A DNA stretch of 62,270 nucleotides from NCBI GenBank assembly GCA_028718225.1, contig JAQUMI010000003.1, forward strand, positions 1-62,270, written 5' to 3'. The position numbers and the translations under genes were made by a program. Below, piece after piece: positions 2,188-25,275 of the stretch (positions within the stretch are counted from its first letter, which is position 1; every line of letters begins with the position of its first letter). Source of the DNA: Candidatus Omnitrophota bacterium. GTDB lineage: Bacteria; Omnitrophota; Gorgyraeia; Gygaellales; Profunditerraquicolaceae. The notes under the pieces were generated by a model, which was not told where the DNA came from, did no database searches, and saw only the letters and a list, made by a program, of their open reading frames with translations.

Positions 2188-2802
2188 TCAGGATTTGATT
2201 ACGGCCTCCCGCCGGCAGCGCGGGCAAAGAACCTTTAGGCGTGTAGAACGGTTAAATGCAGCGGCCTTGCCAGCGGGATTAATTTTTTCTTTTAAAGCCA
2301 ACCCTATGCTCCTTAAATAAAACAAAAGCAGGGAAGCATTGGTAAAAACCAACGTCCCTAACCTTTTAGCCACCCATACGTATTGATCATAAGGCACGAC
2401 CGGCTCACCGCAACACTCGCAAAGCACCAGCTCCTTTTCTATCGTCTGTTTTAAATCCTCTCTTTTTGCGGTAGTCGCCAGGTCAAATTCCCGCGAGAGC
2501 ATAATACCTTTAGCCGTCAGGCAATTCGCTTCGCACTGGCCGCAGAATATGCAGATATCCCAGTGGATAGTTAACTTCCTCCTGGCTCTTCCGCCCTCTA
2601 TCTCATCGTTAAACTCTATGGCTTTTGCCGGGCAAACCTGGGCGCAAGCAGCGCAACCCGTGCAATCTTCTTCATGAAAATAGGGCCGGCCGCGGAAACG
2701 TTCATACGGTTCATGCGCCCTGCGCGGAAAATCGCGGGTGTAAGCAGGGCTAAACAACGACTTTAACGCTTCTTTTAATTCCCGTAATTTTGGTCTGCGC
2801 AT
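2188..2802 (-). CDS. group-4 hydrogenase 2x[4Fe-4S] ferredoxin subunit (EchF/NuoI/HycF-like) with Cys-rich C-terminal extension
   Basis: CTGCAACAQVCP and CIFCGQCEANC cluster motifs. Extra CECCG...CPRC in the C-terminal ~100 aa. Confidence 0.75.
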   Translation of the reverse strand: MRRPKLRELKEALKSLFSPAYTRDFPRRAHEPYERFRGRPYFHEEDCTGCAACAQVCPAKAIEFNDEIEGGRARRKLTIHWDICIFCGQCEANCLTAKGIMLSREFDLATTAKREDLKQTIEKELVLCECCGEPVVPYDQYVWVAKRLGTLVFTNASLLLFYLRSIGLALKEKINPAGKAAAFNRSTRLKVLCPRCRREAVIKS

Positions 2803-2808: not shown

Positions 2809-4566
2809 TTATCTTTTAGGCTTAAAAATCCACTTTAAGGAAAAAATAAAACCCAAACTCTTCAGGATTCCGCTCAAGATGTTATAAATATCCCATTTTT
2901 CAGACCTTAAGAAACGGTAGGCCCCGCGTAATAAAGGGAGCTTTTCTATTGTTTTATAAAATTCCGTAGCCGGGAAATCCGGATAAGCGTAAGCAGTTTC
3001 TCCGCCGGTAAAAAAGTTGTCCTGCCTTGCCTTCTTGACTGCCATAACCCGCCATAATAATAAACCCAATAATAGCGCTGCCGCTATAAATAACGCGACA
3101 AAACCGCTGTTCCACTTGCCGCCGTATTCTAAAACGAATGAAAAAGAAGGAGCGAGGGCATCCCGGATAAAGATATTGGAAAATATACCAAGGATAATGC
3201 AGAGCCCGGAGAGGACCAACAAGGGAGTAAGCATCCTCCAGGAAGTTTCCTTTAATGGCTTCTTAAGATTATTATCCTGGCCCAGGAAGATAGCGTGAAT
3301 AAATTTTATAAAACTGGCCAGGGTCAAGGCGCTGCCGAACATCGCCGCGATTAAAGCGAACATATAAACAAAACGCAGTAAAATTCCACCGGATGAAACC
3401 AGGCCTAAAAGCGCAGCCTGGTAAATCATCCACTTAGAAGCAAAACCATTCAAAGGGGGGATGCCGGAGATGGACAAGGCTAAAATCAGGCCGCTGGCAA
3501 AAGTAAGCGGCATATAGCGGGCCAAGCCCCCTAATTTATCCAATTCAAAAGTCCCTTTCTGTTTCTCTACTGCCCCGCCAACCAGAAAAAGCCCGTTTTT
3601 ATATACGGCATTATTAAACATATGGAATATTGCGCCGATTATTCCTATCGGATTTGCCGTGCCTAGACCTAAAACCATATACCCTGCCTGGCTTATGGCG
3701 TGGTAAGCCAGCAGCTTCCTTAAATCATGCTGCGTAAGCGCCATCATCACCGCAAAAATAATGGTCAGGCTGCCGATAATCAGTAAAAGCGCGATGATAA
3801 AACTGTTTAAAATAAAGAAATCTAAACAAATCCGCGATAAGATGTAAACCCCGAGCAGCTTATCCAGAGACGCCGGTAATATGGCCATTACCGTAACCGG
3901 CGCGCTTTCGCTGGCCGTAGGAATCCAGGTATGGAAAGGGGCTGACCCCAGCTTAGCCAGGCCGCCGATGAGCATAAGGCTAAACACCATCCAGCAAACC
4001 GGCCGGTTTAAGACCATGCTCGTTCCACCGGACATGCTAAAGGAACCTCTAAACAGGCAATAAATATATGTACCGATGATAAAACAGATGCAGGAAAAAC
4101 CCAGGATAGTCGCGGCTTTTCTGGCGCTGAATTTTGAACCTAAACTAAGCAAGGCATAAAGCATAAATATTGAACCAACCCAGGAGAATATAAAGACAAC
4201 AAAATCTGCCGCCAATATCTCCAGGTTAGAGAAGGCTAGCAACCCAAGGAGCCAGGAAAAATAATTGCGCTTTGCGGCCATATAATCCTTGGAATAAAGA
4301 CAGACTAATACGCCAAAAAAATTGGCAAAAATAAGTACCAGGCGGCTTAAGCGGTCCAGCCCGAGCGTAAGCGTATATCCGCTAAAAAGCTGCCTGTTCC
4401 AGGAAAATTGGGGCCGGGAAAATAAAAATATAGCGGCGCACAGGCTAAGCAGGAATATAACCAGGCTTATGTTTTTTTTGAGGCTCTCCTGTTGCCTGAA
4501 GAAAAATAAAACTAAGCCTCCAAGGAGGGGCAGTGTAAAAAGAAAAAACAAGCTCGTATTCATCAT
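2809..4566 (-). CDS. antiporter-like membrane subunit (EchA/NuoL/HyfB/MbhH-like)
   Basis: 585-aa polytopic protein with NuoL/Mrp-type patterns (GSAPFHTWIP, HAISQAGYM). Start overlaps the upstream stop in an ATGA overlap. Confidence 0.8.
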   Translation of the reverse strand: MMNTSLFFLFTLPLLGGLVLFFFRQQESLKKNISLVIFLLSLCAAIFLFSRPQFSWNRQLFSGYTLTLGLDRLSRLVLIFANFFGVLVCLYSKDYMAAKRNYFSWLLGLLAFSNLEILAADFVVFIFSWVGSIFMLYALLSLGSKFSARKAATILGFSCICFIIGTYIYCLFRGSFSMSGGTSMVLNRPVCWMVFSLMLIGGLAKLGSAPFHTWIPTASESAPVTVMAILPASLDKLLGVYILSRICLDFFILNSFIIALLLIIGSLTIIFAVMMALTQHDLRKLLAYHAISQAGYMVLGLGTANPIGIIGAIFHMFNNAVYKNGLFLVGGAVEKQKGTFELDKLGGLARYMPLTFASGLILALSISGIPPLNGFASKWMIYQAALLGLVSSGGILLRFVYMFALIAAMFGSALTLASFIKFIHAIFLGQDNNLKKPLKETSWRMLTPLLVLSGLCIILGIFSNIFIRDALAPSFSFVLEYGGKWNSGFVALFIAAALLLGLLLWRVMAVKKARQDNFFTGGETAYAYPDFPATEFYKTIEKLPLLRGAYRFLRSEKWDIYNILSGILKSLGFIFSLKWIFKPKR

Positions 4567-5180
4567 TTTATCTGAAGCAGGCTTTTAGCTATTTTTTTTA
4601 TATGGTAATAAACCGCGGCGGTAAAATCCAGCATGTTCAAAAACATATTACAGCCCATAGGCGTACATTCTCCGGCGAGCATCCGCTGGTCGTGGTTATG
4701 GCGGTATTTATCCACTAGACTATCAATATGCTCCTCTTTCCTTAAGACTTCCTTGATTAGAGCGGGATTATCCTTTTCTAAAACAAAGACAACCTCTTCT
4801 AAGGCCTCCTTGGTTTTGCTGTAAAGATCTTTATATTCTTCCACAGCTCCTTCACTAAAAAGAAGCTTTTCTTCTATTTTGATCTGGATCCTCTCCAGAA
4901 TATCTTTGCAATAATCTCCGATTAACTCAAAATCCGCGGCTATGTCAGCATAGACGATAACCCGTAATTTTTCCTTTTGCGGCGCATCAGCATGCCCCAA
5001 GTCAATTACGCTCTGATTGATTTCATCTTCCAGGGCATTTAATTTGCTTTCCTCTTCCAGGGCTTTAGAGATCAGCTCCACGTCGTGCTCAATAAAGGCA
5101 TCGTAAGTAAGCTTCCACATACTGGTAGCGCTCTGGGCCATCTGGTTGACTTTTTCCTTAATACTATTCAGGTCTGCCAT
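4563..5180 (-). CDS. PhoU-domain-like protein embedded in the hydrogenase operon
   Basis: All-helical 205-aa protein. FELIGDYCKDILERI resembles the PhoU ERIGDhatNI helix, with ELIGD matching E/DxxxD. The C-terminal half resembles the PhoU-like tail of Na/Pi cotransporters. Overlaps both neighbours (17 nt and 4 nt). Confidence 0.5.
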   Translation of the reverse strand: MADLNSIKEKVNQMAQSATSMWKLTYDAFIEHDVELISKALEEESKLNALEDEINQSVIDLGHADAPQKEKLRVIVYADIAADFELIGDYCKDILERIQIKIEEKLLFSEGAVEEYKDLYSKTKEALEEVVFVLEKDNPALIKEVLRKEEHIDSLVDKYRHNHDQRMLAGECTPMGCNMFLNMLDFTAAVYYHIKKIAKSLLQIK

Positions 5181-6372
5181 AGTAACCCTCCTTTAGCTTA
5201 AGGGTCTTCTCCTGGGATAGTTTAATCAAATCCCAGCCATTCATGACTCTACGCTTATCTATCTTATTAATCACCGCTACTCTCTCCGTGCAGCAATAAC
5301 AGGGATCAACCGCCGCCAGGGTAAGGGTCGCGTCGGAAATCGTACCCCCCACAGCAGAAACTTTATCCGACGCTACATTCATAAAACTCGGAGAACGGAT
5401 CTTATGCCGAACTGGGCGGTTTGTCCCATCACTCTTTAGGTAGTGAAAACACTCCCCTCTGGGCGCTTCGACCCTGCCGATGCCTTCTCCGGCAGGTATA
5501 TCTTTGACCCCGGCATCAATCGGCCCGTCTTTAGGCATCTTATTCAAAGATTGGCGAATAATGCTGATGCTTTCGTATAGTTCCAGGATCCTGACTATCG
5601 TCTTACAAAATATATCCCCGTCTTTCTCCAGGATCACCTTCCAATCCAGCCTGTCTGATACACCATAAGGTTCATCCCGGCGTATATCCATGTTTACGCC
5701 TGAGGCGCGGGCAGTCGGTCCCACAACACACCAGTCAACTACCTGCTGACGGGTTAAAATACCCACGCCCTTTAACCTCATTTTGATTACCGGATCATCC
5801 ATAATCGCGCCGCGGAATAAATCTATCCCCGGCCTTAATTCGTCCAGCGTCTTTTTTAATACCGGTATATCTTCGTCTTTTAGGTCGCGCCTCACACCGC
5901 CGACCTTAAACATAGCGTAATTATTCCGGTTTCCGGTAACCATCTCAAACATATCCAGTACCGGTTCGCGGTATTTCCAGGCCCACATCCAAACCGTATT
6001 ATAACCGATAAAATGCCCGGCCAAGCCCAGCCAAAGAAGATGGCTATGTATCCTCTGCAGTTCATCAATGATTGTGCGGATATACAACGCTCTCTCCGGG
6101 ACAATATTCGCTTCTCCCCCGAGGATATTTTCCACGGCTAAACAATAGGCGTAAGGATGGCTGGATGAACAGATACCGCAGATACGTTCAACCAAGAACG
6201 GCACCTGGTCAAAATGCTTGGATTCAGAAAGTTTTTCTATGCCGCGGTGGTTATAACCGATAATGATATCTATATCAACCACCTTTTCGCCTTCAACATA
6301 AAGCTGGAAATATTCCGGTTCTTCCTGTAAAGGGTGGTAGGGGCCTATAGGTACGATAATTTTATGGCTCAT
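5164..6372 (-). CDS. group-4 [NiFe]-hydrogenase catalytic large subunit (EchE/MbhL/HycE/NuoD-like)
   Basis: N-terminal Ni-Fe ligand motif RICGICSSSH and C-terminal DPCYCCTER, followed by a 38-aa tail. Confidence 0.9.
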   Translation of the reverse strand: MSHKIIVPIGPYHPLQEEPEYFQLYVEGEKVVDIDIIIGYNHRGIEKLSESKHFDQVPFLVERICGICSSSHPYAYCLAVENILGGEANIVPERALYIRTIIDELQRIHSHLLWLGLAGHFIGYNTVWMWAWKYREPVLDMFEMVTGNRNNYAMFKVGGVRRDLKDEDIPVLKKTLDELRPGIDLFRGAIMDDPVIKMRLKGVGILTRQQVVDWCVVGPTARASGVNMDIRRDEPYGVSDRLDWKVILEKDGDIFCKTIVRILELYESISIIRQSLNKMPKDGPIDAGVKDIPAGEGIGRVEAPRGECFHYLKSDGTNRPVRHKIRSPSFMNVASDKVSAVGGTISDATLTLAAVDPCYCCTERVAVINKIDKRRVMNGWDLIKLSQEKTLKLKEGYYGRPE

Positions 6373-6797
6373 TTTTTGTTCCTTAAAGGATAATCGCTTT
6401 CCGGCCAGTCTTCGTTAAGCAGGAGTTTCTTTAAATTCGGATGCCCCTTAAAATTAATCCCCAGCATCTCCCAAGACTCGCGCTCGATCCACTCGGCTGC
6501 CGGAAAGAGTGGAGTAATAGATTGAATTTCGGGCTTAAGCTTATCATTCAGCGTAACGCGCACGGAATAAATTTCGCCGGCCGGATCATTACTAAAATGG
6601 TAAATAACCTCAAAATAGTCCGGCATATCTGTAGCCGAAATCGTAATAAACCTCAGCTCTAAGCTCCTGAATAATACTTGCGTTACTTCAAGAATATCTT
6701 TTTTATCTATGCTAAAGTAGACCCTTTTTATGTATTTCTCCTGCCAGTCTTTTATTTTATCCCGCAGGCTTTCTTTTATTCTATCCCGCATATCCAT
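6369..6797 (-). CDS. NuoC/EchD/MbhK-like 30-kDa-type subunit
   Basis: Start moved to MDMRDRIKE..., because the longer ORF would overlap the small-subunit gene. PLFPAAEWIERESWEMLGINFKGHP is the NuoC signature region. Confidence 0.7.
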   Translation of the reverse strand: MDMRDRIKESLRDKIKDWQEKYIKRVYFSIDKKDILEVTQVLFRSLELRFITISATDMPDYFEVIYHFSNDPAGEIYSVRVTLNDKLKPEIQSITPLFPAAEWIERESWEMLGINFKGHPNLKKLLLNEDWPESDYPLRNKK

Positions 6798-6801
6798 AAG
6801 C

Positions 6802-7227
6802 TTACTTACCTTTCTTGATTTTATCCAGAGCCTTGACAATACCGGCGATGATTGCTTCGGGCTTAGGCGGGCAGCCCGGAATATAGACATCCACCGGTAA
6901 TATTTTATCCAAGGGCTCAGCGACGTTATAACTATATTTGAACATATGCTGCGAACAGGCGCAGGTACCGCAGGCAACGACCACGCAAGGCTTAGGTACC
7001 TGTTCATAAACCTTTTTCATTCTCAAAACAGCTTTTTTATTCATTGCCCCGGTAATTAAGAGCGCGTCCGCATGGCGGGCTGAGCCAATAAGTTGTACGC
7101 CAAAACGCTCCAGGTCAAACCTGGGAGTAAAACAATCCAGCGTTTCAATATCGCAGTTATTGCAGGAGCCCACGCTCATATGAAATACCCAGATTGATTT
7201 AGTGAACGCTTTTTTTATTATATCCAT
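6802..7227 (-). CDS. group-4 hydrogenase small subunit (EchC/MbhJ/NuoB-like)
   Basis: Four Cys of the proximal cluster: GSCNNCDIE, GTCACS, IPGCPPKPE. Confidence 0.85.
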   Translation of the reverse strand: MDIIKKAFTKSIWVFHMSVGSCNNCDIETLDCFTPRFDLERFGVQLIGSARHADALLITGAMNKKAVLRMKKVYEQVPKPCVVVACGTCACSQHMFKYSYNVAEPLDKILPVDVYIPGCPPKPEAIIAGIVKALDKIKKGK

Positions 7228-7228
7228 A

Positions 7229-8140
7229 CTATAATCCCAATAATGCTAATATAACCGCTATTACCCCTAACAACGTCGGGATCCTCCAAAAGAACTTTAA
7301 GGCCTGGTCAATGCGTAGGCGCGGGTTGGTATTTTTAATCAAAATGATTATGGCCAACAACATCAGGTATTTAGCGATTAAAAATAACGGACTTAAAGAA
7401 CAGCCCAAAAATAGGACGATGATAAAGAGCGGCAGGGCATAAAACATTACCGCCTTGGTCAATTTAAATACGGCTAGGGGCAAACCCGAATATTCAATCA
7501 GGGTTCCAGACATAATCTCCTGATCGGCCTCGGCGATATCAAAGAGCCCGATGCCTAACTTTGCCTGTATACAGAATAGGGCGACGAGAAAACTTAAAGA
7601 ACCGGAAAAAGAAAAAATATTTGAGCCGAAAAATAACTGCTGCCGGATTATCTGACCCAGCTGTATTGCGCCGTTGCTCCTGATAATGATGGTAATTATC
7701 GCCAGGATAAAAGGAAGCTCATACGCCAAAACCAGCTTCATCTCCCGCGCCGCTCCCAATGAAGCCAGCGGATTCCTGGAGGCCGAAGCGCCGATCATTA
7801 AAGCCAGCGCAGGGACGGTTAGAAGATAAAAGAGTACGAGCAAATCTCCGCTAAAGCTATCTAAAGGTGCAATTATACTCCTGCCTAAATAAGTAGCGGC
7901 TAATACCGCGCTGATTAAGCCAATGTACGGCGAGAACAAAAATGTGTACCTGGCGCCTGCGGGGATAATGGTTTCTTTGCCTAATAATTTTATTAGATCG
8001 GTAAAATTCTGGTGCCAGGGAGGGCCGATGCGCCACTGCAGCCGCGCAGTAATCTTCCTGTCAACCCAGCCGGCTAAAAGTCCGATTACGGCACTGAATA
8101 AAAATCCCGGAAATATCAGACAATAAAAAATTTGTTTCAT
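7229..8140 (-). CDS. NuoH/EchB/HycD-like membrane subunit
   Basis: Start moved to MKQIFYCL... (ATGA overlap with the upstream stop). Polytopic, with RKITARLQWRIGP typical of the NuoH family. Confidence 0.8.
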   Translation of the reverse strand: MKQIFYCLIFPGFLFSAVIGLLAGWVDRKITARLQWRIGPPWHQNFTDLIKLLGKETIIPAGARYTFLFSPYIGLISAVLAATYLGRSIIAPLDSFSGDLLVLFYLLTVPALALMIGASASRNPLASLGAAREMKLVLAYELPFILAIITIIIRSNGAIQLGQIIRQQLFFGSNIFSFSGSLSFLVALFCIQAKLGIGLFDIAEADQEIMSGTLIEYSGLPLAVFKLTKAVMFYALPLFIIVLFLGCSLSPLFLIAKYLMLLAIIILIKNTNPRLRIDQALKFFWRIPTLLGVIAVILALLGL

Positions 8141-8631
8141 CTTTTCCTCGGCGGCTGAACATCTTCCCTGGACCATCTGCATGAATGTACCGCCAGATGT
8201 TCACCTACAAAATAAATATCCTTTTCCAGGCTTTCCTCCACTTCTCTAATCTCAATGGCTTTTTCGGGACAACTGCTTATACACCTAGGAAGCTGCGTGC
8301 TCCTGCCTACACAATAATCGCAGGCTGAATCAAGATAAGGAATAAAATCCTGAAAGATGATCCCGAACGGGCAGGCCACGGAACAGGATTTACAACTCGT
8401 ACAGAGCATTTTGTGGCGCCGGATATGCCCGTCACTGGCACGTTCCAGGGCATTATGGTAACAAGAATCCACGCAAGGCGCTTCTTCGCAATGCCGGCAG
8501 ATAGTGGCAAAAGTCGCGTATTCACGTAAAGAGGTAATCCCGTTATTCTGCGGATGATAAAAATAATCGCAGGCAACGCGGCATTCCTTGCATTTATTAC
8601 AGATATCTAAATCTATAAATAATCTTTTCAT
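8137..8631 (-). CDS. HycB/HydN/DmsB-type polyferredoxin (four [4Fe-4S] motifs)
   Basis: CNKCKECRVAC, CRHCEEAPCVDSC, CTSCKSCSVACP, CDYC...CISSCP. Confidence 0.75.
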   Translation of the reverse strand: MKRLFIDLDICNKCKECRVACDYFYHPQNNGITSLREYATFATICRHCEEAPCVDSCYHNALERASDGHIRRHKMLCTSCKSCSVACPFGIIFQDFIPYLDSACDYCVGRSTQLPRCISSCPEKAIEIREVEESLEKDIYFVGEHLAVHSCRWSREDVQPPRKR

Positions 8632-8642
8632 CCTCTTATTGC

Positions 8643-8695
8643 CACGCTGGCTGATCTAAAGCGGACACAGTGTCCGCTTTGGCTGAGGCAGCGTG
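8643..8695 (-). other. nested perfect inverted repeat (intercistronic hairpin) between asrB-like and hycB-like genes
   Basis: Inner arms AAAGCGGACAC (8658-8668) / GTGTCCGCTTT (8670-8680) with 1 nt between them. Outer arms CACGCTG (8643-8649) / CAGCGTG (8689-8695). Confidence 0.5.
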
Positions 8696-8703
8696 ACAAG
8701 CAC

Positions 8704-9522
8704 TTAATCCCAGATATCGTGGATATCTTTCAGCTGTTCGTAAGTAAAAACCGGGCCGTCTTTACAGGCGTAGAATTTACCGACCCGGCAATGCCCACAT
8801 TTCCCCAGGCCGCAGGACATACTTTTTTCCATAGACAGGTATATATCCGGCGGTTGAAATCCCAAATCCAGTAGTTTTAAGGTGACAAATTTCATCATAA
8901 TCGGCGGGCCGCAAACTATTGCCGCAGCGCTGGAGTAATCTACCCCGGTATTATCCAATACCGTAGTCACCAGACCCACATTTCCCGACCAACTGCTATC
9001 TCCCACATCTACGCTGACTAAAACATCCACCTTGTCCTTCTTGCTCCATTCAGGAAGAAGGGTTTTATAGACTATATCCCCGGAAGTACGGCTGCCGTAA
9101 CGCAAGACAACTTTATTATAACTATCAATGCCGGAAAATAAACTGAATAATAACGAGCGCAACGGCGCCAGGCCTACCCCGCCGCCGACGATTAAAATAT
9201 CCCTTCCTTTAAATTTATCCAGAGGATAGCCCTGGCCGTAGGGGCCGCGGATACCTACCATATCACCCTTTTGCAGCGTGTGCAATTTAGAGGTGACTTC
9301 TCCCACATTCATTACGGTGAGTTCTAAACTCTCCTTTATTCCCGGATCCGACGATGGGGTAAAGGGCGCCTCTCCTATTCCGGGCACAGTCAATTCAATA
9401 AATTGACCGGTGGCGAAGTTAAAATCCGCCTCGGGCCTAAGGCGGAAAGTCTTTATCGCGTGCGTTTCTTCAATTATTTCTTCAATAACGGCCTTAACCG
9501 GCTGGTATATATTTTTCTTCAT
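8704..9522 (-). CDS. FAD/NAD(P)-binding [2Fe-2S] flavoprotein, AsrB / sulfhydrogenase gamma (HydG) / PyrK-like
   Basis: FNR-like fold motifs (APFTPSS, GGGVGLAPL) and C-terminal CGLGKCGHCRVG 2Fe-2S motif. Confidence 0.75.
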   Translation of the reverse strand: MKKNIYQPVKAVIEEIIEETHAIKTFRLRPEADFNFATGQFIELTVPGIGEAPFTPSSDPGIKESLELTVMNVGEVTSKLHTLQKGDMVGIRGPYGQGYPLDKFKGRDILIVGGGVGLAPLRSLLFSLFSGIDSYNKVVLRYGSRTSGDIVYKTLLPEWSKKDKVDVLVSVDVGDSSWSGNVGLVTTVLDNTGVDYSSAAAIVCGPPIMMKFVTLKLLDLGFQPPDIYLSMEKSMSCGLGKCGHCRVGKFYACKDGPVFTYEQLKDIHDIWD

Positions 9523-10564
9523 ATAATTTCCGTAATATCCGGCGGATATCTATTTTCCCGGGGCAAACCTCAATGCACCTTCCGCATCCACAGCAGGCCT
9601 GATAACCCAAATTAGCAATAAAAAAATCAAATTTCTTCAAATAGCGGTTACGCAGCCTCATGTAGCGCAGGCGCAGGGGATTGGCCCCACCGGCAACCTT
9701 GGTAAAATTTTTTAAGAGACACCCGTCCCAGAGGCGTAGGCGCCGGGAATTGCCCGACGGAGAATCTTCGCTGAGTAAAAAACAATGACAGGTATCGCAC
9801 ATAAATACGCAGCCGTTACATTCAACGCAAGTGTGCATTTCATCCTGCCAGATCTCTGAATTATAGCCTGATAAGACTACCTCCTGTAAGACCTCTTTTT
9901 TAGGAATCTTATGCTGCGCCAAATGCTCATCCATACGCCGGTTTACCGATTCCCTCTTGGCTGTCCTTCCGGAAAGCTGACCTAAGGTCGCCGGCGTTAA
10001 TATACCTTTTAAAGAAAGAGCGATCATTTTTGCCTTTTGCGAAGCTACATCCAACAGATAACCGTTGTTCAGCGGCGAAAGGTTGAAATCAAAACCCTCG
10101 GCCGGATAGGGGTTAATATCAAATGCCCGGCAGAAACAAACTTCTTTAAAATGCGGGCAGTCGCCGGAAATAACTAACGTATTGTCCCTTCTTGCCTTAT
10201 AAAGCGGGTCTACTTCCTTGCCTCCCAGGAATACGAAATCCTGCACTTTTAAAGAAAAAATATCGCAATTCTTTATACCGCAGAGCGCCTGGGGCCTTTC
10301 CTTATAATTGCCGATATCTTCTTTGTAATGCGTAAGGAACGCGCGGGTCGGTTCTGCTACGCGGTATTCATTAAAAACTATCTCTTCCCTGTTAACCTGA
10401 GAGAATTTCTTTAAGAAATAATCTGCGGTAGGAAGCCTGGCCTTGCCTTCGTATTCATACTTAAGCGCAGATTCGGCTTTAACCGGGACATACAGGTCAT
10501 ATTCCTGCTCTATACGCTCATAGAATTTAAGCAGGTCATCGTTTTTGAAAAAATAGGTTTCCAT
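9494..10564 (-). CDS. Fe-S subunit, AsrA / sulfhydrogenase beta (HydB)-like
   Basis: CVECNGCVFMCDTCHC and CCGCGRCIEVCPGKIDI motifs. Size and architecture match the AsrA/HydB family. Confidence 0.7.
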   Translation of the reverse strand: METYFFKNDDLLKFYERIEQEYDLYVPVKAESALKYEYEGKARLPTADYFLKKFSQVNREEIVFNEYRVAEPTRAFLTHYKEDIGNYKERPQALCGIKNCDIFSLKVQDFVFLGGKEVDPLYKARRDNTLVISGDCPHFKEVCFCRAFDINPYPAEGFDFNLSPLNNGYLLDVASQKAKMIALSLKGILTPATLGQLSGRTAKRESVNRRMDEHLAQHKIPKKEVLQEVVLSGYNSEIWQDEMHTCVECNGCVFMCDTCHCFLLSEDSPSGNSRRLRLWDGCLLKNFTKVAGGANPLRLRYMRLRNRYLKKFDFFIANLGYQACCGCGRCIEVCPGKIDIRRILRKLYEEKYIPAG

Positions 10565-11026: not shown

Positions 11027-11929
11027 CTAAAGCAGAATACATTTTTTAAAGTTCACCAGCCTCTTGTTTAAATCCCTCATCGCTAGCCTGCAGGTCCTCT
11101 CCAGGCCAAAGCCTTCAATATTAAAAGAAGCGGCGATAGTCCCGAAAACAAGCCCCTTTCTTATATTTTGCATATTGACTGACTTGGTTTTAGCCAAATA
11201 CCCCATAAAACCCCCGGCAAAAGTATCCCCTGCCCCGGTAGGGTCAATTACCTTATCTGCCGGGTACGCCGGAAGCGAGAAGATGAACTTATCATTATAA
11301 AACAAAACTCCGTGTTCTCCTTTTTTAATCAAAACCATCTTAGGACCGAAGGAGCGCAAAGCGCGGGCTGCCTGAATTAAATTATGTTCCTGGGATAAAG
11401 AGCGCGCCTCTTGGTCATTGGCTACATAGATATGTACTTGCCTTAACAGACGCAGAAGTGATTTACGTTTATTATTAATCCAGTAATTCATGCTATCCAG
11501 AGCAATAAGCTTAGGCGAACGCATATGCCCCAGCAGATGCCGCTGGATGTCCGGGTCAACATTAGCCAGGAAAACGTATTCTATCCTTTTCTGTTCTTCT
11601 GAAATCTTAGGCTTAAATGTACTCAAGACCCCTAATTCGGTATTCAAAGTAATAGCGGTATTTAAATCGCCTTGATATTCTCCTGACCATTGAAAGGTCT
11701 TGCCTGAGGCCTCGCGGATAAGCGCGCTAAGATTAATGCCTTTAGCCTCTAAAAAATCTATATGTTTCTGGGGAAAATCCTTTCCTACAATGGCGACGAG
11801 ATTTACTGGAGTGAAGATGCGCGCGGCCATGGAAAAATGCGCGGCTGAACCGCCAAGCATCTTTTTCCTTTGGCCAAAAGGAGTCTTCACATTATCCAGC
11901 GCCACTGTCCCCAAAACCAGTATACTCAT
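11027..11929 (-). CDS. PfkB-family carbohydrate/nucleoside kinase
   Basis: DPTGAGDTFAGGF anion-hole/ATP motif and overall ribokinase-like pattern. Confidence 0.75.
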   Translation of the reverse strand: MSILVLGTVALDNVKTPFGQRKKMLGGSAAHFSMAARIFTPVNLVAIVGKDFPQKHIDFLEAKGINLSALIREASGKTFQWSGEYQGDLNTAITLNTELGVLSTFKPKISEEQKRIEYVFLANVDPDIQRHLLGHMRSPKLIALDSMNYWINNKRKSLLRLLRQVHIYVANDQEARSLSQEHNLIQAARALRSFGPKMVLIKKGEHGVLFYNDKFIFSLPAYPADKVIDPTGAGDTFAGGFMGYLAKTKSVNMQNIRKGLVFGTIAASFNIEGFGLERTCRLAMRDLNKRLVNFKKCILL

Positions 11930-18004: not shown

Positions 18005-18961
18005 CTACCTGCAGTGAACAACATCCCCGGACATAACCTTTTGGGTTATGCCGTTATCCTTACGGATGAGTAACCCTCCGTCGGTATCTATATCCAATGC
18101 CTCTCCTTCAATATGTTTATGTTGACAATATACCTTTACCCGCCGGCCTAAGGTAGCGTTACTCTGGCGCCATTTTTCCAGAATTTGGCTAGCTCCTTTT
18201 TTCTCCAGAAACAGGTAATTTACTTCGAGTTCCCGCAATATCTCCTGCAACAGACTAACCCGGCTTACTTCTTCCTTTTTTTGCTCCTTTAAGGACGTAG
18301 CGGTGCTAATCAAGGACTTTTTATCATTATTCACATTTATCCCGGCGCTGATAATCACGAAGTCTATCCTATCGGTTTCAGCGATTACCTGCGTCAATAT
18401 ACCACAGAGTTTTTTATTGTTTACCAGCAGGTCGTTGGGCCATTTTATCTGGGAAGTAATGCCGGTTGAGTTTTTCAGCGCAGTACAGATACTTACCGCT
18501 GCCAGGAGGGTCAGGATAGACGCCTGCGTAGGAAGCATACTGGGACGTAAAATTAAAGACATATATAAACCTTTATACTTGGGAGAAAACCAATCCCTGC
18601 CCAGCCTTCCCTTGCCTTTAGTCTGGGATTCTGCCAGAATAAGTGTACCGCTGGCAGCGCCCTTTACCCCCAGGTCCATCGCCATATCTATAGTTGAAGT
18701 TAATGTATCGTAATAGAATATCCTCCTGCCAAAGGTCTTAGTGTTCAGAGAGCGGGAGACTTCAAATTCAAATAACCTGTCGGGGCTGGAAGCAAGACGA
18801 TAGCCCAAGTGCGGAACTGCCTCGATATCATAACCTTTGTCTTTTAATTCCTGTATATGCTTCCAAAGAGCCTGCCGGCTGATGTTTAAATAACTGCTTA
18901 TGTCTTCGCCGGAAACATAAGCTTCTTTTTTCTTCAAGAGATTTAAGATTTTATCCTGCAT
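18005..18961 (-). CDS. birA: bifunctional biotin-[acetyl-CoA-carboxylase] ligase / biotin operon repressor
   Basis: N-terminal wHTH, GKGRLGRDW biotin-binding loop and C-terminal SH3-like tail. Confidence 0.9.
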   Translation of the reverse strand: MQDKILNLLKKKEAYVSGEDISSYLNISRQALWKHIQELKDKGYDIEAVPHLGYRLASSPDRLFEFEVSRSLNTKTFGRRIFYYDTLTSTIDMAMDLGVKGAASGTLILAESQTKGKGRLGRDWFSPKYKGLYMSLILRPSMLPTQASILTLLAAVSICTALKNSTGITSQIKWPNDLLVNNKKLCGILTQVIAETDRIDFVIISAGINVNNDKKSLISTATSLKEQKKEEVSRVSLLQEILRELEVNYLFLEKKGASQILEKWRQSNATLGRRVKVYCQHKHIEGEALDIDTDGGLLIRKDNGITQKVMSGDVVHCR

Positions 18962-19995
18962 TATTTTTTAAGGTACTCCTCGAATTTTTGCCAAAATGGA
19001 TCTGTCCCGGGATGGGTCAGCTTAAACTTATTTTTTCCTTCAACGACAGTAATTCCTTTTTCCTTCTCCACTACTTCTCCGGCGATACTCGCGGGGATAC
19101 CCTCCCTGCTTAGAGCATCTACTGCTTTTTGGGCGTTGGACTTATCAATCGTAGCCAGTAAAGTTCCTTCGCTTATTGCCCGATAAGGATCAATATTAAA
19201 GCATTCACAAGTTTTCTTAACTGTCTCCTGGATTATTATCTTATCCAGCCAGATATGCATACCCACCTGGCTGTGGCCGGCAATTTCATAAAGTCCGCCA
19301 AAAACCCCGCATTCGGTGGCATCATGCATAGCCGTGACTTTTCCGGCTTTTGCTACGATAAGCGCGTCTTTTACCGTAGACATCTGGTAATAAACATCCT
19401 GGGCGCACCTTACGAATTCTTTTCCGAAACGCTTTTCCAGATATTTAGGGAAATACGCCGCCATCAATCCGGTAGTTTCGATTGCCGCTCCTTTAGAGAT
19501 AATGACCGCGTCCCCTATTTTTGCCTGGGGCCTGACCAGTTTTTCTTTTTTATCAATACCAAAAACGGTTGCTCCGCCGACAAAAGGATAATTACACCCT
19601 GCGTAGCGGGCAGTATGCCCGGTCACTATGGAGATGCCCAGTTTTTTGCACTCGCTATCCACCGTATTCCACATACGGATTAATTCATCTTCCGTAATTT
19701 CCGGGGGAAGATTTAAATCCACGGCTAAATATCTGGGCGCGATACCGCTAACCGCTACATCGCTGGCTAATATATGCACGGCAAACCAGGCCGCTTTTTC
19801 CATACCCAGACCAGCAGCGATATAAAAAGGATCTGTAGATAGAACCATGACCCTATCTCCCAGGTCAACCACGCCAAAGTCAACCCCGGAAAAAGGCTTA
19901 ACTATGACCGACGAATCAGGATTACCTAGTTTCGGATAAATGAACTTAGTGAAAAATTCAGGATGGATTTTACCTAACGCGGGCAACTCGCTCAT
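18961..19995 (-). CDS. AIR synthase-related protein (PurM/ThiL/HypE/SelD superfamily)
   Basis: DFGVVDLGDRVMVLSTDPF and ...VTGHTARY... PurM-fold patterns. Lacks the C-terminal Cys motif of HypE. Confidence 0.7.
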   Translation of the reverse strand: MSELPALGKIHPEFFTKFIYPKLGNPDSSVIVKPFSGVDFGVVDLGDRVMVLSTDPFYIAAGLGMEKAAWFAVHILASDVAVSGIAPRYLAVDLNLPPEITEDELIRMWNTVDSECKKLGISIVTGHTARYAGCNYPFVGGATVFGIDKKEKLVRPQAKIGDAVIISKGAAIETTGLMAAYFPKYLEKRFGKEFVRCAQDVYYQMSTVKDALIVAKAGKVTAMHDATECGVFGGLYEIAGHSQVGMHIWLDKIIIQETVKKTCECFNIDPYRAISEGTLLATIDKSNAQKAVDALSREGIPASIAGEVVEKEKGITVVEGKNKFKLTHPGTDPFWQKFEEYLKK

Positions 19996-21155
19996 TTTTT
20001 TTCATACAGCGGAGACATAGCGCGCAGCTTTTCAACTACTTTAGGCAGGTTCTCCAGTAAAAATTTTATATCCTGCTCTTTGGTCCATCTGCCCATACTG
20101 ATTCTAAGAGAACCGTGAGCAGTCGCATGGTCCAGGCCAATAGCCAAGAGCACGTGTGATGGCTCCAAAGAACTGGAAGTGCAGGCTGAACCGGTGGAAA
20201 CGGCAATCCCGAGCATATCCAAACTTAAAAGGATAGACTCCCCTTCTATATATTTTATGGAAAAATTGACGTTATTGGGCAGCCGCAGCTGAGGATGACC
20301 GTTAAGCCGGACATCGGGAATTTTTTCAGGTATTTCTTGGATTAATTTACCACGTAAAACTGCCAAGGTTTTTGCTTCTCTGCCCATATCCTTAGCGCAT
20401 AATTCTACTGCCTTGGCTAAACCGACTATACCGGGAACATTGTGCGTGGAAGCGCGCCTGTCTCTCTCCTGGTCTCCGCCGCATAAAAATCTGCCGATAC
20501 GCACCCCTTTTCTAATATACAATGCGCCGACGCCTTTCGGGCCGTAAAACTTATGGCTGGAGAGCGATAGGAGGTCAACACTCAGCTCATTAACATTTAC
20601 CGGAATGTGGCCGACAGTCTGCACCGCATCGGTATGAAAATAAATTCCCCTTTCCCTAGCGATCTTACCGATTGAGGAAATAGGCTGGATTGTCCCGATT
20701 TCGTTATTGGCGTGCATAATGGAAATAAGGATTGTTTTATCGGTGATCGCTTTTTTGACTTCATCGGGAGAAACCAATCCGTCTCTATCCACTCCCACAT
20801 AAGTGATCTGAAAACCCTTTTTTTCCAATACCTTACAAGGCTCAATTATGGCGTGGTGTTCTACGGCGGAGGTGATAATATGGTTACCTTTATCCGCTAA
20901 GGCATCGGCCACTCCGAAAATAACATTATTATTGGATTCGGTGCCCCCGGAAGTAAAGATTACTTCTTCAGGCCTGGCTCCTAAAAATTCAGCAGTCGCT
21001 GCGCGGCTATCTTCCAGCGCCTTTTTAGCCTCTTGCCCATAAGCGTGCAGACTGGAGGCATTACCGAACTTCCCAAAAAAATACGGCTCCATGGCTTTTG
21101 CTACTTCCGGGTCACAGGGAGCGGTGGCCGCGTAATCCAGATAAACCTTTTTCAT
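19992..21155 (-). CDS. nifS: cysteine desulfurase (NifS/IscS class)
   Basis: PLP-lysine motif SSHKFYGPKG and active-site loop GSACTS. Confidence 0.9.
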   Translation of the reverse strand: MKKVYLDYAATAPCDPEVAKAMEPYFFGKFGNASSLHAYGQEAKKALEDSRAATAEFLGARPEEVIFTSGGTESNNNVIFGVADALADKGNHIITSAVEHHAIIEPCKVLEKKGFQITYVGVDRDGLVSPDEVKKAITDKTILISIMHANNEIGTIQPISSIGKIARERGIYFHTDAVQTVGHIPVNVNELSVDLLSLSSHKFYGPKGVGALYIRKGVRIGRFLCGGDQERDRRASTHNVPGIVGLAKAVELCAKDMGREAKTLAVLRGKLIQEIPEKIPDVRLNGHPQLRLPNNVNFSIKYIEGESILLSLDMLGIAVSTGSACTSSSLEPSHVLLAIGLDHATAHGSLRISMGRWTKEQDIKFLLENLPKVVEKLRAMSPLYEKK

Positions 21156-21958
21156 CTCCTAATCACCTCGTTTAAACTGCCGGTGCGATAACCTTCCATA
21201 TCCGCAGTTATATAATTATAACCTAGTTTTTTTAATTTGTCGACTATGCTTTGGCGCTTACTGACCAACCGGCCAATTTCTTTTTCCGGCACTTCCAGAC
21301 GGCAAAGACCGTTGTAATGCCTGACCCTGACCTGGCTAAAGTTTAACCCCCTTAAAACCCCCTCTGCCTTATTGATGCGTTCAAGTATGGGTTGAGAAAT
21401 CCGCACTCCGTAAGGAATGCGCGAAGCTAGGCACGCCTGAGCCGGCTTATTCCAGGTCTTCAGGCCCAGCTTTTTACTTAAAGCCCGGATATCCGCTTTA
21501 GTAAACCCCGCTTCCTGCAGCGGAGAACGCACCTGCAATTCTTTTTTCGCTCTTTCGCCCGGTCGAAAATCGGTTTTATCCGAAAGGTTGCTTGCATCAA
21601 AAATAAATTTAAGCTTACCTTTACGGGCCAGAGTTTTTAACTTTATAAAAAGCCTTTTTTTACAGAAATAACAACGGTCAGGGGTATTGGAAACAAATTT
21701 TTTATCTTTTAGTTCGGATGTCTTGATTATCTTATGTTTTGCCCCGAATTTACGCGTTATTTCCTGCGCCAACAATAGTTCTTCCTTTGGGTACGTTAAA
21801 GATCTGGCGGTAACCGCAAGAATCTTATTCTTCGGGAGAGCGGATAAAGCGGTTTTCAACAAAAGCGTGCTATCTACGCCACCGGAAAAAGCTATCAGGC
21901 AAGAACCGCTCTTCTTAAGTATTTTCCTAAGTTTGAATAATTTATTTTTAAGCTGCAT
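21152..21958 (-). CDS. LarE-like PP-loop ATP-dependent sulfur transferase (TIGR00268-type)
   Basis: Start moved to MQLKNKLFKL..., because the longer ORF overlaps the upstream gene. SGGVDSTLL PP-loop and QACLASRIPYG Cys motif as in LarE. Confidence 0.7.
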   Translation of the reverse strand: MQLKNKLFKLRKILKKSGSCLIAFSGGVDSTLLLKTALSALPKNKILAVTARSLTYPKEELLLAQEITRKFGAKHKIIKTSELKDKKFVSNTPDRCYFCKKRLFIKLKTLARKGKLKFIFDASNLSDKTDFRPGERAKKELQVRSPLQEAGFTKADIRALSKKLGLKTWNKPAQACLASRIPYGVRISQPILERINKAEGVLRGLNFSQVRVRHYNGLCRLEVPEKEIGRLVSKRQSIVDKLKKLGYNYITADMEGYRTGSLNEVIRR

Positions 21959-21965
21959 TGAATCC

Positions 21966-22373
21966 TTAAAAATGCACTTCCATCGCGCGCGGCGGACAAA
22001 TCTTGACGCAGAGCTCACAGGCAATACACTTTTTATTATTAAAGAGTACCTTGCGCGTCTGGGGATCAACTATCAGGGCCTCAGTCGGGCAGATCGGCAC
22101 GCATACACCGCAGTTTGTACATTTTTTATCGTTCCTGACTACATCCTGGCTTAAGGACTGGATGCGCACCCCGCAGGATTGCAGGTATTCTACTCCTTTG
22201 TCAAAGTTTTCTCTCTTACCGGTCAATTCCAAGACCATCAACCCTTCTTCGTTCGGGGTGACAAAGGCCTTAAGGATATTAAACTGCAGGTTAAATTCTT
22301 TGACCAGATTATATACTATAGGCTGGTCAACCAAGCGATGCGGAAAATGCAAGACTATTCTCTTAGAGACCAT
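21966..22373 (-). CDS. NIL domain - 2x[4Fe-4S] ferredoxin fusion (MA1822-like)
   Basis: N-terminal NIL-like pattern (QPIVYNLVKEFNLQFNILKA), C-terminal CTNCGVCVPICP and CIACELCVKICP. Confidence 0.75.
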   Translation of the reverse strand: MVSKRIVLHFPHRLVDQPIVYNLVKEFNLQFNILKAFVTPNEEGLMVLELTGKRENFDKGVEYLQSCGVRIQSLSQDVVRNDKKCTNCGVCVPICPTEALIVDPQTRKVLFNNKKCIACELCVKICPPRAMEVHF

Positions 22374-22375
22374 GC

Positions 22376-23590
22376 TTACACCTCTTTTTTAACAATTTGA
22401 CGCTCCTTAAGCATTTTAAAAGTATAACCGGACTCCTTCCCCGGTAATTTTGCTACCGGCTCGGTTAAGAGAAAATCGCCTTTTTTGATCCAGGACTTTA
22501 ACTCTTCGGAAATTTCACGGGCTTTAGAATAACTGGAAAGGTTCCCGGTGGCAACCTCTTTACCTTTAACAACTATTTTACCGGTCTTAAGCTGCGCATA
22601 ATTGACCTCACCTAAAGATTGGGCCAGGCACTGCGGATAATTCTGGCCGTAGTCTACGATTTGAGTATAAATATCCTCGTCTTTTGCCGCAGCCGCTAAA
22701 AGCGTCTCTTCATCAAGGATGGGGATCGGTACACCGATACCCACAATAAGCGTAACCCCGTAGCCAAGCATACTCGTTCCTACGAGCCACTCTGGTTTCA
22801 TTTGTTTTAAATCGCCGATAACTGCCAAGGTCCCGGCAGGGGCTTGCGGTATTCCGTTTTTTTTACGCGCTACTTGCGGGTTATGCTGGGTTCCCTGCCA
22901 GACAACGTAACCTATGCCGCCGCCCAAGAAAATCTTGGTCCCGATGCCGATTTGGCGGTATCCGGGATCTTTAAGCAGCGGGGAAAGTTGCCCCGCTGAA
23001 CAGTAATTGGCATTACCCAGGCTGGGTTTAAGCATGCCCATATAAGTATAAATAGTCTTATCCGATAAATTTACCGCCACATTATAATTTTGATAGGCGT
23101 TGCGGATATTAAATAAGACTGCCTCATTTAAATCTTTTATATTGATAAGTGTTTCGATCTTTTTACGCGGATAACAATCCGTGCCGTAAGCAGTGGCTTC
23201 TAAACGGACGTCGCTGCCCGCTACTAATTCCTGGATGACATGGGCCCCTCCGTATTTAAATTCCCCCGGATAGACTTTATTGCGCGGGTCATCATCAGGA
23301 AGAGCGGTCGCACCGAGGTAAACATCCACTGCCGCAAACCCGGTATAGGCCGGGATATCATTAAAAGTGCAGGTTCCGCCGCCGACTTTTATCCGGGGCC
23401 TGGAGTGCCCGATATTAAAATAAGCTCCGCTTGAACACATCGGACCGAAAGTGCCGGTAGTAACAACATCCACTTCCTGCGCCGCTTTTTTTGCGCCCTT
23501 TTTTTCAACCAGGTCAATGACCTCTTCGGCGGTGACTACGGCTACTTCGCCTTTTTTAATTTTTTCGTTTATTTCTTTAATAGTTTTCAT
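22376..23590 (-). CDS. COG1900 (DUF39/HcyBio) homocysteine-biosynthesis protein (MA1821-like, no CBS domains)
   Basis: 404 aa. N-terminal KTIKEINEKIKKGEVAVVTAEE...VDVVTTGTFGPMCSSGA pattern is characteristic of COG1900. Sits adjacent to the NIL-ferredoxin gene. Confidence 0.75.
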   Translation of the reverse strand: MKTIKEINEKIKKGEVAVVTAEEVIDLVEKKGAKKAAQEVDVVTTGTFGPMCSSGAYFNIGHSRPRIKVGGGTCTFNDIPAYTGFAAVDVYLGATALPDDDPRNKVYPGEFKYGGAHVIQELVAGSDVRLEATAYGTDCYPRKKIETLINIKDLNEAVLFNIRNAYQNYNVAVNLSDKTIYTYMGMLKPSLGNANYCSAGQLSPLLKDPGYRQIGIGTKIFLGGGIGYVVWQGTQHNPQVARKKNGIPQAPAGTLAVIGDLKQMKPEWLVGTSMLGYGVTLIVGIGVPIPILDEETLLAAAAKDEDIYTQIVDYGQNYPQCLAQSLGEVNYAQLKTGKIVVKGKEVATGNLSSYSKAREISEELKSWIKKGDFLLTEPVAKLPGKESGYTFKMLKERQIVKKEV

Positions 23591-23616
23591 CAGTTACCTC
23601 TAATAAAAAATTTTGA

Positions 23617-23838
23617 TTATATTGCCACGACCTCTTTTACCTCCGGGACCTCCTGCTTAATGATCCGCTCAATCCCCATTTTTAAAGTCATTGAACTCAT
23701 CGGACAACATCCGCAACTGCCTTTAAGTTTTAATTTAACCACGCCGCCATCGGTTACCTCAATTAACTCTACATTGCCTCCGTCTGCCTGAAGCATCGGG
23801 CGAACCTTCTCTAACGCCTTTTCAATCCTCTCTCTCAT
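23617..23838 (-). CDS. NifU C-terminal-domain-like Fe-S scaffold/carrier protein
   Basis: 73 aa. ...ADGGNVELIEV...LKGSCGCCPMS... CxxC motif typical of Nfu/NifU-C. Confidence 0.8.
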   Translation of the reverse strand: MRERIEKALEKVRPMLQADGGNVELIEVTDGGVVKLKLKGSCGCCPMSSMTLKMGIERIIKQEVPEVKEVVAI

Positions 23839-23850
23839 TTTAGTCTCCTT

Positions 23851-24774
23851 TTATACGCTAAATAACCCTGTGCTTAAATAACGCTCGCCTGTGTCCGGCA
23901 AGATCACAACGATTAATTTTCCCTTATTCTCTTTCCTCGCGGCAACTCCTAAGGCAGCCGAGACAGCTGCGCCGCTGGAGATTCCGGCTAAAATCCCTTC
24001 TTCTTTGGCCAGCCTTCTGGCGGCTTGCGCAGCGTCAGCATTAGAGACCCGGATTATTTCATCAACAATCTTTAGATTCAGGACCCCGGGGATAAATCCG
24101 GCTCCTATACCCTGGATCTTATGCGCCCCCGGCTTACCTCCGGATAAAACCGCCGAGTCTTCCGGCTCAACCGCAACAGTTTTAATCGACGCCTTTTTCT
24201 TTCTTAAAGCCTCGGCAATACCTGTAATTGTACCACCTGTACCAACTCCTGCAATTAAAATATCGATTTTCCCGTCCGTATCGCGCCAAATCTCCTGTGC
24301 TGTTGTGCGGCGATGGATATCCGGGTTTGCCGGGTTCTCAAATTGCTGCAAAATAAAATAACGTTTATCGCTTTTAGCCAGATCTTCTGCCTTCTTTACC
24401 GCCCCGGGCATGCCTTCTGTCCCGGGAGTAAGGATAATCTCGGCACCAAAAGCGCTAAGGAGCTGGCGGCGTTCAATGCTCATTGTCTCCGGCATAGTTA
24501 AAATCAACCTATACCCCTTGACTGCCGCAACAAAAGCCAGGGCAATCCCGGTATTGCCGCTAGTCGGTTCAATGAGAACCGTATCTTTTTTAATCTTTCC
24601 TTCAATCTCCGCCCGCTCAATCATGCTCAAGCCGATCCTGTCCTTTACCGAAGAACAGGGATTAAAAGATTCAAGCTTTACGGCTATGGCCGCAGGAAGA
24701 TCTTTAGCTAAACGGTTAAGCTTGACCAGAGGGGTATTGCCAATCAGTTCAGTAATATCTTTAGCTATCTTCAT
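23851..24774 (-). CDS. cysK: cysteine synthase A (O-acetylserine sulfhydrylase)
   Basis: PLP-lysine [21 protein letters not shown] loop. Confidence 0.9.
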
Positions 24775-25215: not shown

Positions 25216-25223
25216 CTTATTCT

Positions 25224-25275
25224 ATATAATCTCTATTATATTAGTAGAGTATACCTAAAAAAATAAATTTTGTCA
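25224..25275 (-). promoter_or_regulatory. promoter plus candidate Rrf2 operator of the sulfur operon
   Basis: TTGACA (25275-25270), 16-nt spacer, TATACT (25253-25248). Inverted repeat ATATAAT-ctct-ATTATAT (25224-25241) lies between the -10 and the start codon. Confidence 0.45.

Follow-up and report, generated by a model that had tools for sequence, protein, structure and literature searches.

The stretch analysed here, 62,270 nt from a genome of Candidatus Omnitrophota (GenBank assembly GCA_028718225.1, contig JAQUMI010000003.1, positions 1 to 62,270; the window, below, means this whole stretch), carries on its minus strand an operon for a membrane-bound [NiFe]-hydrogenase, and inside this operon lies a gene (4563..5180) for a 205-aa protein with the predicted fold of PhoU. 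The PhoU-like gene was found inside the same hydrogenase operon in every one of 84 mapped loci. We propose, with moderate confidence, that its product is a soluble, cytoplasmic, two-repeat PhoU-fold protein which serves as a dedicated and lineage-specific regulatory or accessory partner, docking on the Mbh-type hydrogenase of the Omnitrophota (group 4, reported as '4g'). The enzyme type is known, but this accessory protein had not been described for it, and for the PhoU family the genomic setting is new.

Respiratory complex I has its closest living relatives in the group-4 hydrogenases, which serve as models for redox-driven ion pumping; to our knowledge, almost nothing is known about the control of their activity at the protein level. 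A PhoU-fold partner that is strongly conserved throughout a phylum would be the first candidate for a regulatory or accessory subunit of its kind, and the finding extends what is known of the energy metabolism of the Omnitrophota, an uncultured phylum of ultra-small bacteria. As for PhoU itself, it binds PstB and PhoR and modulates the PstSCAB transporter as an adaptor, PhoU domains also occur fused to Na/Pi cotransporters, and solved PhoU proteins, e.g. 1sum, bind multinuclear metal clusters.

Fold, family and translation of the 205-aa protein

An earlier note on this DNA, made from the sequence alone, had taken the product for an all-helical PhoU-type protein and had suggested domain searches as well as structure prediction with Foldseek. 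The domain search and the structure agree with it. The Pfam PhoU domain (PF01895) matches with E=1.8e-20 and 73.5 bits against a cut-off of 23.5, in two repeats, and the AlphaFold2 model, built with 25 homologues (pLDDT 91.8, pTM 0.90), is all-helical with six long helices. The best PDB matches of this model in Foldseek are 4q25 (Pseudomonas; TM 0.90, rmsd 1.9 Å) and 1t72 (Aquifex; TM 0.86), the three structures 1t72, 4q25 and 1sum (Thermotoga) fall at TM 0.84-0.90, and the top 17 PDB matches are all crystal structures of PhoU or PhoU-like proteins. On this model the 205-aa protein is a genuine PhoU-fold protein, namely a six-helix bundle predicted to consist of two three-helix repeats. Another suggested search, with PhoU_div (PF01865), gave no match to the window protein at E<=0.01. 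The Pfam scan detected no Na_Pi_cotrans domain (PF02690) and no DNA-binding or catalytic domain in the protein. When the profile of the family was run against all PDB chains, its matches were stand-alone PhoU and PhoU-like proteins only: at E<=1 it matches no chain from the solved structures of Mbh, MBS, FHL, Mrp or complex I, and the 50 listed Foldseek matches likewise include none from a hydrogenase, Mrp or complex I. Both results agree with the previous statement that the characterised complexes contain no PhoU-fold subunit.

Within the PhoU superfamily the protein stands apart from PhoU proper, as it failed the test for canonical PhoU with 61.1 bits against a cut-off of 130.25 for the PhoU equivalog TIGR02135, and 27.7 against 342 for NF008332. 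A HMMER search of 1.84 billion cluster representatives returned about fifteen clusters at 50% identity, about 200-206 aa in length and with E<1e-25, which make up the family proper. The next tier consists of the C-terminal 200 residues of proteins of 530-580 aa, matched over both repeats at E about 1e-15, and the longer relatives P0155, P0160, P0165, P0166 and P0172 carry the Pfam domains Na_Pi_cotrans and PhoU together. By these matches it is the cytoplasmic tails of NptA-type Na/Pi cotransporters that the whole protein resembles most, and these tails are its nearest relatives outside the family. The same resemblance had been noticed before for the second half of the protein; it is real but not limited to that half. 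While the tails of NptA/YjbB-type cotransporters are thus the closest in sequence, the window protein differs from them in being stand-alone, with partner genes which are respiratory-complex-like and include no phosphate carrier. Database entries call some members of the family 'phosphate:Na+ symporter' or 'Na/Pi cotransporter family protein', despite their having no transporter domain, and others 'PhoU domain-containing protein'; the present assignment corrects the misleading ones of these names for several hundred metagenomic proteins.

Conservation was examined in an alignment of 85 family members with 30-100% identity. Invariant or nearly so are E44, N48 and E51 in helix 2, E85, G88 and D89 in helix 3, E96, R97, K101, E104, L106, F108 and S109 at the end of helix 3 and in the inter-repeat loop, H163 and R166 in helix 5, and C172, N178, M179, D185 and H193 in a loop and helix 6. 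The alignment to 1t72 and 4q25 shows that repeat 1 retains the full canonical acidic site of PhoU (E44/N48/E51/E85/D89), with the signature D/E-x3-D/N...E...E-x3-D, whereas repeat 2 has been remodelled and its ExxxD motif has become D185-x3-(A/N/Q). The helix quoted in the earlier note, FELIGDYCKDILERI, corresponds to residues 84-98, and it does contain the E/DxxxD motif named there, as E85xxxD89 of repeat 1, which is invariant in 85/85 members. The copy of this motif in repeat 2 is degenerate: D185 is likewise invariant, but A, N or Q takes the second acidic position. The two repeats are joined by the linker K101-I-x-E-x-L-L-F-S109, and the cotransporter tails have the same linker in the form K-I-x-E-x-x-x-F-S, together with the motif H-x-x-R-L-x-x-G-x-C. 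Both this linker and the invariant C172, H163 and R166 are atypical of PhoU proper. Since C91 and C177 are kept in only about 60% of the members, a cysteine-based cluster site is unlikely.

The reading frame starts with ATG at 5178-5180 and thereby overlaps the large-subunit gene, whose stop codon TAG lies at 5164-5166, by 17 nt, while its own stop codon TGA (from 4563) forms an ATGA overlap with the start of the NuoL-like gene at 4564-4566; both overlaps had been claimed before and both are real, as read at 5164-5180 and 4563-4566. Five nt 5' of the ATG, within the 3' end of the large-subunit gene, a strong Shine-Dalgarno sequence can be read, AAAGGAGGG (5186..5194, minus strand). Compared with four relatives of 81-95% nucleotide identity, the frame has dN/dS of 0.04-0.08, which means strong purifying selection far beyond chance expectation and upholds the coding status of the frame, whose non-translation would have spoken against the earlier claim. 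With a strong ribosome-binding site of its own and overlapping neighbours on both sides, the frame appears to be translated, its product being made from the hydrogenase operon.

Retention of the gene in Mbh-type hydrogenase operons

In the window the operon runs on the minus strand from 10564 to 2188 in the order HydB/AsrA-like, HydG/AsrB-like, Fer4_11, NuoH-like, NuoB-like, NuoC-like, large subunit, PhoU-like, NuoL-like and NuoI-like. The [NiFe] large subunit, NuoD/MbhL-like and of 402 aa (5164..6372, minus strand), matches Pfam Complex1_49kDa and NiFeSe_Hases, contains the nickel-binding motifs RICGIC and DPCYCCTER, and ends in a conserved C-terminal tail of 38 aa. Its closest solved relative is MbhL of Pyrococcus furiosus (6cfw_L, E=2e-83), with HycE next, a result in line with the group-4 setting which the earlier note had assigned. 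Judged by the nickel motifs and by the NuoB/C/H/I/L-like partners, the operon is that of an Mbh-like group-4 membrane-bound [NiFe]-hydrogenase. It shares with the P. furiosus MBH (6CFW), and with the Mbh/Mrp, MBS, FHL and Ech systems, a core of MbhL-like, NuoB/C/H/I-like and MbhH/MrpD-like subunits, to which a full Mrp set is added in most relatives; it differs from them in the sulfhydrogenase beta/gamma-like and Fer4_11 genes upstream, in the missing Mrp module of the window version, and in the PhoU-like protein, whose family profile matches no chain of the solved entries at E<=1.

The Mrp-linked membrane-bound [NiFe]-hydrogenase of the Omnitrophota has been called 'group 4g' (PMC8542988, PMC10066038), group 4g has been reported as polyphyletic (PMC13582414), and the same 2026 paper described homologues of SHI beta/gamma which adjoin group 4b enzymes (PMC13582414). 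In the papers that our searches returned, these three included, we found no mention of PhoU as a component of membrane-bound or energy-converting hydrogenases, of Mrp or in Omnitrophota, nor is there a PhoU entry in supplementary files of a study of an enrichment in which Ca. Velamenicoccus archaeovorus predominates.

A protein search over 5.8 billion sequences gave 369 relatives, those listed being of about 205 aa and all named ones belonging to Candidatus Omnitrophota, and a scan of genomes (one per species, 185,579 species) gave 105 PhoU-like relatives. We mapped 84 loci, namely the best 80 of these 105 species-genome relatives and 4 metagenome contigs, with 30-98% identity, using as queries the operon proteins of the window and the Mrp proteins of one relative. 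The taxon labels are those of the deposited metagenome-assembled genomes (MAGs), and by these the best 80 loci are nearly all Omnitrophota; the exceptions are one Nitrospirota-, one Patescibacteria- and one 'bacterium'-labelled MAG as well as several assemblies labelled 'uncultured Planctomycetales' or 'Planctomycetia'. The loci labelled Planctomycetales/Planctomycetia or 'Patescibacteria group' cluster with Omnitrophota by PhoU, NuoD and NuoI, and their labels may be placeholders or wrong.

The PhoU-like gene lies inside the same hydrogenase operon in 84/84 of these loci, which were selected through this very gene, and therefore Omnitrophota operons which have lost it fall outside the sample. 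The prevailing arrangement is large subunit (NuoD), PhoU, antiporter-like (NuoL-like), with 72 loci, 3 of them ending at a contig edge after PhoU; the recurrence of this order in 72 of 84 loci, which the earlier note had suggested to survey, argues that PhoU is not a passenger gene. The order MrpG, PhoU, NuoI occurs in 10 loci, and since all ten form one clade in the clusterings of PhoU, NuoD and NuoI, it goes back to a single relocation. One locus (L066) has NuoH, PhoU, NuoB. In another one (L071), a closed genome of 1.14 Mb, the operon is split, and PhoU opens a PhoU-NuoL-Mrp-NuoI unit, while no NuoBCDH gene lies closer to it than 10 kb. Between the NuoL-like and the NuoI-like gene, most relatives encode a complete Mrp module (MbhD/E, MnhB, MrpC, D, E, F, G). 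This module has been lost from the window and from its close relatives, where the PhoU-like gene has stayed. The gene has outlasted one relocation, one operon split and the loss of the Mrp module. Distant stand-alone relatives with 23-29% identity, from Planctomycetes and others, lie outside hydrogenase operons in the three contexts looked up; therefore the hydrogenase-linked proteins form a distinct orthologous group, and an extension of the linkage to these PhoU-tail-like proteins is ruled out for those three contexts.

A proposed docked partner of the hydrogenase and its alternatives

The partner proposed here, like PhoU, would be a small, soluble and cytoplasmic protein attached to a membrane machine. 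Its docking site would be on the cytoplasmic side of the complex, close to where the redox arm (NuoD/NuoI/NuoH) meets the first antiporter-like subunit, and contact would be made through the invariant inter-repeat loop K-I-x-E-x-L-L-F-S which the protein has in common with the Na/Pi cotransporter tails. A divalent metal and/or a small anion, e.g. phosphate, would be bound at the acidic site E44/N48/E51/E85/D89 of repeat 1 and at the His/Arg/Cys/Asn/Asp cluster of repeat 2, and under the control of this ligand the protein would brake or modulate turnover or ion coupling, in parallel to PhoU, which restrains PstSCAB, and to the PhoU tails which presumably control NptA-type transporters. Docking, ligand binding and modulation by the PhoU-like protein are all steps that we infer, with these transporters as the analogy. 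A more specific version, which we regard as rather improbable, is that a complex-I-like energy-converting hydrogenase has acquired a PhoU-type sensor as a regulatory subunit, which reads cytoplasmic phosphate as a proxy of the energy charge, or a divalent metal, and throttles or uncouples ion pumping and H2 turnover. If true, it would be a previously unknown protein-level control of a respiratory-type ion pump, derived from the co-opted regulatory tail of a Na+/Pi transporter.

In favour of such a partner speak the PhoU domain and fold, the place of the gene inside the operon of all 84 loci and its survival of the Mrp loss, the low dN/dS, the invariant residues with the linker common to the Na/Pi cotransporter tails, and the confinement of the hydrogenase linkage to one orthologous group. 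The co-divergence of the operon proteins speaks partly for it and partly against it. Distances were taken from tblastn segments, with a full matrix of n=23 loci with which larger pairwise sets agree. Pairwise protein distances within a redox block (NuoD, NuoI, NuoH, NuoC, Fer4_11, HydG) correlate with r=0.83-0.95, those among NuoL-like, MbhD/E, MrpC, MrpD and MrpE with r=0.58-0.89, and between the redox block and the NuoL/Mrp block the values are only r=0.1-0.3. The PhoU-like protein follows the redox block with r=0.78-0.89 (about 0.85-0.89 for NuoD, NuoI and HydG), and the clades of PhoU, NuoD and NuoI coincide, both points in favour of a partner; with the antiporter and Mrp subunits it gives r=0.11-0.21, which counts against a specific co-adapted interface and leaves a co-evolution with these subunits unsupported. 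Because the history of the PhoU-like protein follows the redox module instead of the Mrp/NuoL module, the earlier idea of a gate for the antiporter module is weakened. It should be kept in mind that a distance correlation speaks to co-inheritance rather than to physical contact. The NuoL/Mrp cassette has a history of its own, since MrpD clusters mix members of different redox-module clades, and the incongruent distances of the two blocks suggest an exchange of the cassette between Omnitrophota lineages, though NuoI is encoded downstream of it. Both common arrangements place the PhoU-like gene at a border of this cassette, which again speaks for the proposed partner.

Further opposing observations come from sister operons. 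With the large subunit of L066 as query, many closer relatives were found in other phyla, and the loci L088-L093, including Kiritimatiellae and Latescibacteria, have the order (Rex)-HydB-HydG-Fer4_11-NuoH-NuoB-NuoC-NuoD-NuoL-MbhD/E-MnhB-MrpC-D-E-F-G-NuoI-(HycI), in which neither the family hidden Markov model nor tblastn found a PhoU-like gene. Such operons of Kiritimatiellae, Latescibacteria, Verrucomicrobiota and others match those of the Omnitrophota in gene content and order, their NuoD is 61-64% identical to that of the window, a distance equal to that of the Omnitrophota clades C and D, and they work without a PhoU-like protein. Since the gene is missing from these equally built operons of other phyla, the PhoU-like protein is a lineage-specific addition to a widespread operon, an accessory and not a core subunit. 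The large subunit of L091 is even 93% identical to that of L066, yet L091 has no PhoU-like gene, and from this pair it follows that the complex needs no special adaptation for the PhoU-like protein. Elsewhere, unrelated genes stand at the same junctions: in L091 a CMD/AhpD-like gene of 112 aa (11254-11592) separates NuoD from NuoL, and in L088 CbiM with PDGLE, components of Ni/Co uptake, lie between NuoH and NuoB (8050-9064), which means that these junctions tolerate insertions. Nor is there among the compared loci any PhoU-correlated difference in the tail of the large subunit: the motif ..DLI[KR]LSQEKT.. is kept with and without PhoU, L066 and L091 are near-identical in this tail, and a change of the tail linked to PhoU is ruled out. 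The same operons also offer natural controls, both as sister operons without the gene and as a near-identical enzyme pair with and without it.

Among the alternatives, the one that survives best, although we hold it to be unlikely, is a factor for maturation, assembly or metal handling which transiently binds a metal (Ni, Fe or another divalent one) or a subunit precursor outside the working enzyme. The fully conserved canonical acidic metal site of repeat 1 would suit such a role, as would the multinuclear clusters known from solved PhoU proteins; the PhoU-like gene usually follows, and often overlaps, the large-subunit gene, its product co-diverges with the redox rather than the ion module, and CbiM/PDGLE at the NuoH/NuoB junction of a sister operon shows that genes for metal supply are recruitable. 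However, HycI and HypA/C/D occur together with the PhoU-like gene in many Omnitrophota loci, so that it takes the place of none of them; in sister lineages, maturation of the same enzyme proceeds without it; no hydrogenase chaperone of the PhoU family is known, and the split operon keeps the PhoU-like gene with the membrane half, apart from the large subunit. HycI follows NuoI in clades C and D and lies about 6 kb downstream in the close relatives of the window, and Rex is found upstream in several Omnitrophota clades; a replacement of either HycI or Rex by PhoU is ruled out, as both coexist with PhoU in many loci.

It is also improbable, in our estimate, that the protein is a signalling adaptor which informs another protein, e.g. 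a kinase, a regulator or a further transporter, of the activity state of the hydrogenase or of the cytoplasmic phosphate or energy status, and in this way controls expression or another process. To act as an adaptor is what PhoU is known for, the absence of any DNA-binding or catalytic domain fits with it, and the gene is lineage-specific and dispensable for the enzyme as such; on the other side, no sensor kinase or response regulator is conserved beside the Omnitrophota operons, and translational coupling together with strict retention inside a structural operon suits a bound partner better. That the gene might be a mere passenger in the hydrogenase transcript, encoding an ordinary PhoU of phosphate homeostasis or a piece of a Na/Pi cotransporter, as the database names and the Pfam PhoU match would have it, is largely refuted and hardly credible given the TIGR02135 score of 61 bits against 130, the missing Na_Pi_cotrans domain, the absence of pst (pstSCAB) and phoR-phoB genes from the 62-kb window and from the annotated flanks of the relatives, the loss of the ExxxD motif in repeat 2, and the presence of the gene in the operon of 84/84 loci despite relocation, split and module loss.

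Further features of the operon and the window

Both genes downstream of the PhoU-like gene lie on the minus strand, as does the whole operon. The NuoL/MrpD/MbhH-like antiporter-like membrane subunit (2809..4566, 585 aa) matches Pfam Proton_antipo_M, with MrpD 7qru_D and MbhH 6cfw_H as its closest PDB chains. The last operon gene in the window (2188..2802) encodes a NuoI/HycF-like 2x[4Fe-4S] ferredoxin of 204 aa, matched by Pfam Fer4_7 and, below their cut-offs, by the NCBIfam models for formate hydrogenlyase Fe-S proteins and NuoI; it has a C-terminal extension with four extra cysteines (CECCG...CPRC), which is zinc-ribbon-like or may be an additional metal site.

Upstream of the large subunit, the NuoC-like gene (6369..6797) is recognised by Pfam Complex1_30kDa on residues 99-210 of a long open reading frame (listed up to 7007), the NuoB-like small subunit (6802..7227, 141 aa) by Pfam Oxidored_q6 and by NCBIfam NF005012 with 141.9 bits against a cut-off of 116, and the NuoH/MbhM-like membrane subunit (7229..8182) by Pfam NADHdh with E=1.9e-59. 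The mechanically derived NuoC-like and NuoH-like frames overlap their neighbours by 206 and 46 nt, with starts set too far upstream; the true starts are likely internal ATGs near 6797 (MDMRDRIKE, NuoC-like) and 8140 (MKQIFY, NuoH-like). There follow, towards the head of the operon, a Fer4_11 polyferredoxin of 164 aa (8137..8631; Pfam Fer4_11), a FAD/NAD(P)-binding protein like sulfhydrogenase gamma (HydG/ShyC) or AsrB (8704..9522; Pfam NAD_binding_1, FAD_binding_6 and DHODB_Fe-S_bind, NCBIfam AsrB/hydrogenase gamma below cut-offs), and, as the first operon gene, an Fe-S subunit like sulfhydrogenase beta (HydB/ShyB) or AsrA (9494..10564; Pfam Fer4_22, NCBIfam ShyB/HydB below cut-offs). HydB/HydG (AsrA/AsrB-like) and Fer4_11 genes head the operon both in Omnitrophota and in the sister phyla (8704-10564 in the window; L088-L093), and this suggests a membrane-bound hydrogenase which may be linked to NAD(P)H and not purely ferredoxin-dependent.

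Without the seven-gene Mrp module, the operon of the window is a reduced, Ech-like derivative, and the same loss is seen in L005-L011, L013 and L040. The tail of the large subunit past DPCYCCTER, 33-47 aa long, is unusually conserved across phyla (..NGWDLIKLSQEKT..; 5164-5280 in the window), although this segment is expected to be cleaved by a HycI-type protease. No hycI or hyp genes were found within the 62-kb window; in close relatives hycI lies about 6 kb past nuoI, a position whose equivalent falls beyond the window edge. L066 has between HydG and Fer4_11 (4966-8438) a pilin-like gene and two open reading frames without Pfam matches (668 and 310 aa).

Elsewhere in the window, two further clusters lie on the minus strand. 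The one at 18961-24774 is a sulfur-incorporation cluster with genes for HcyBio (homocysteine biosynthesis), a PLP-dependent PALP enzyme, a class-V aminotransferase/cysteine desulfurase, an AIR-synthase-related protein and a QueC-like ATPase. The other, at 24775-30851, is an apparent defence island against oxygen or redox stress, which comprises two Rrf2 regulators, a thioredoxin-reductase-like flavoprotein, rubrerythrin, a PNPOx-like protein, a flavodiiron-type protein (ODP metallo-beta-lactamase fold with flavodoxin) and an FNR-like reductase.

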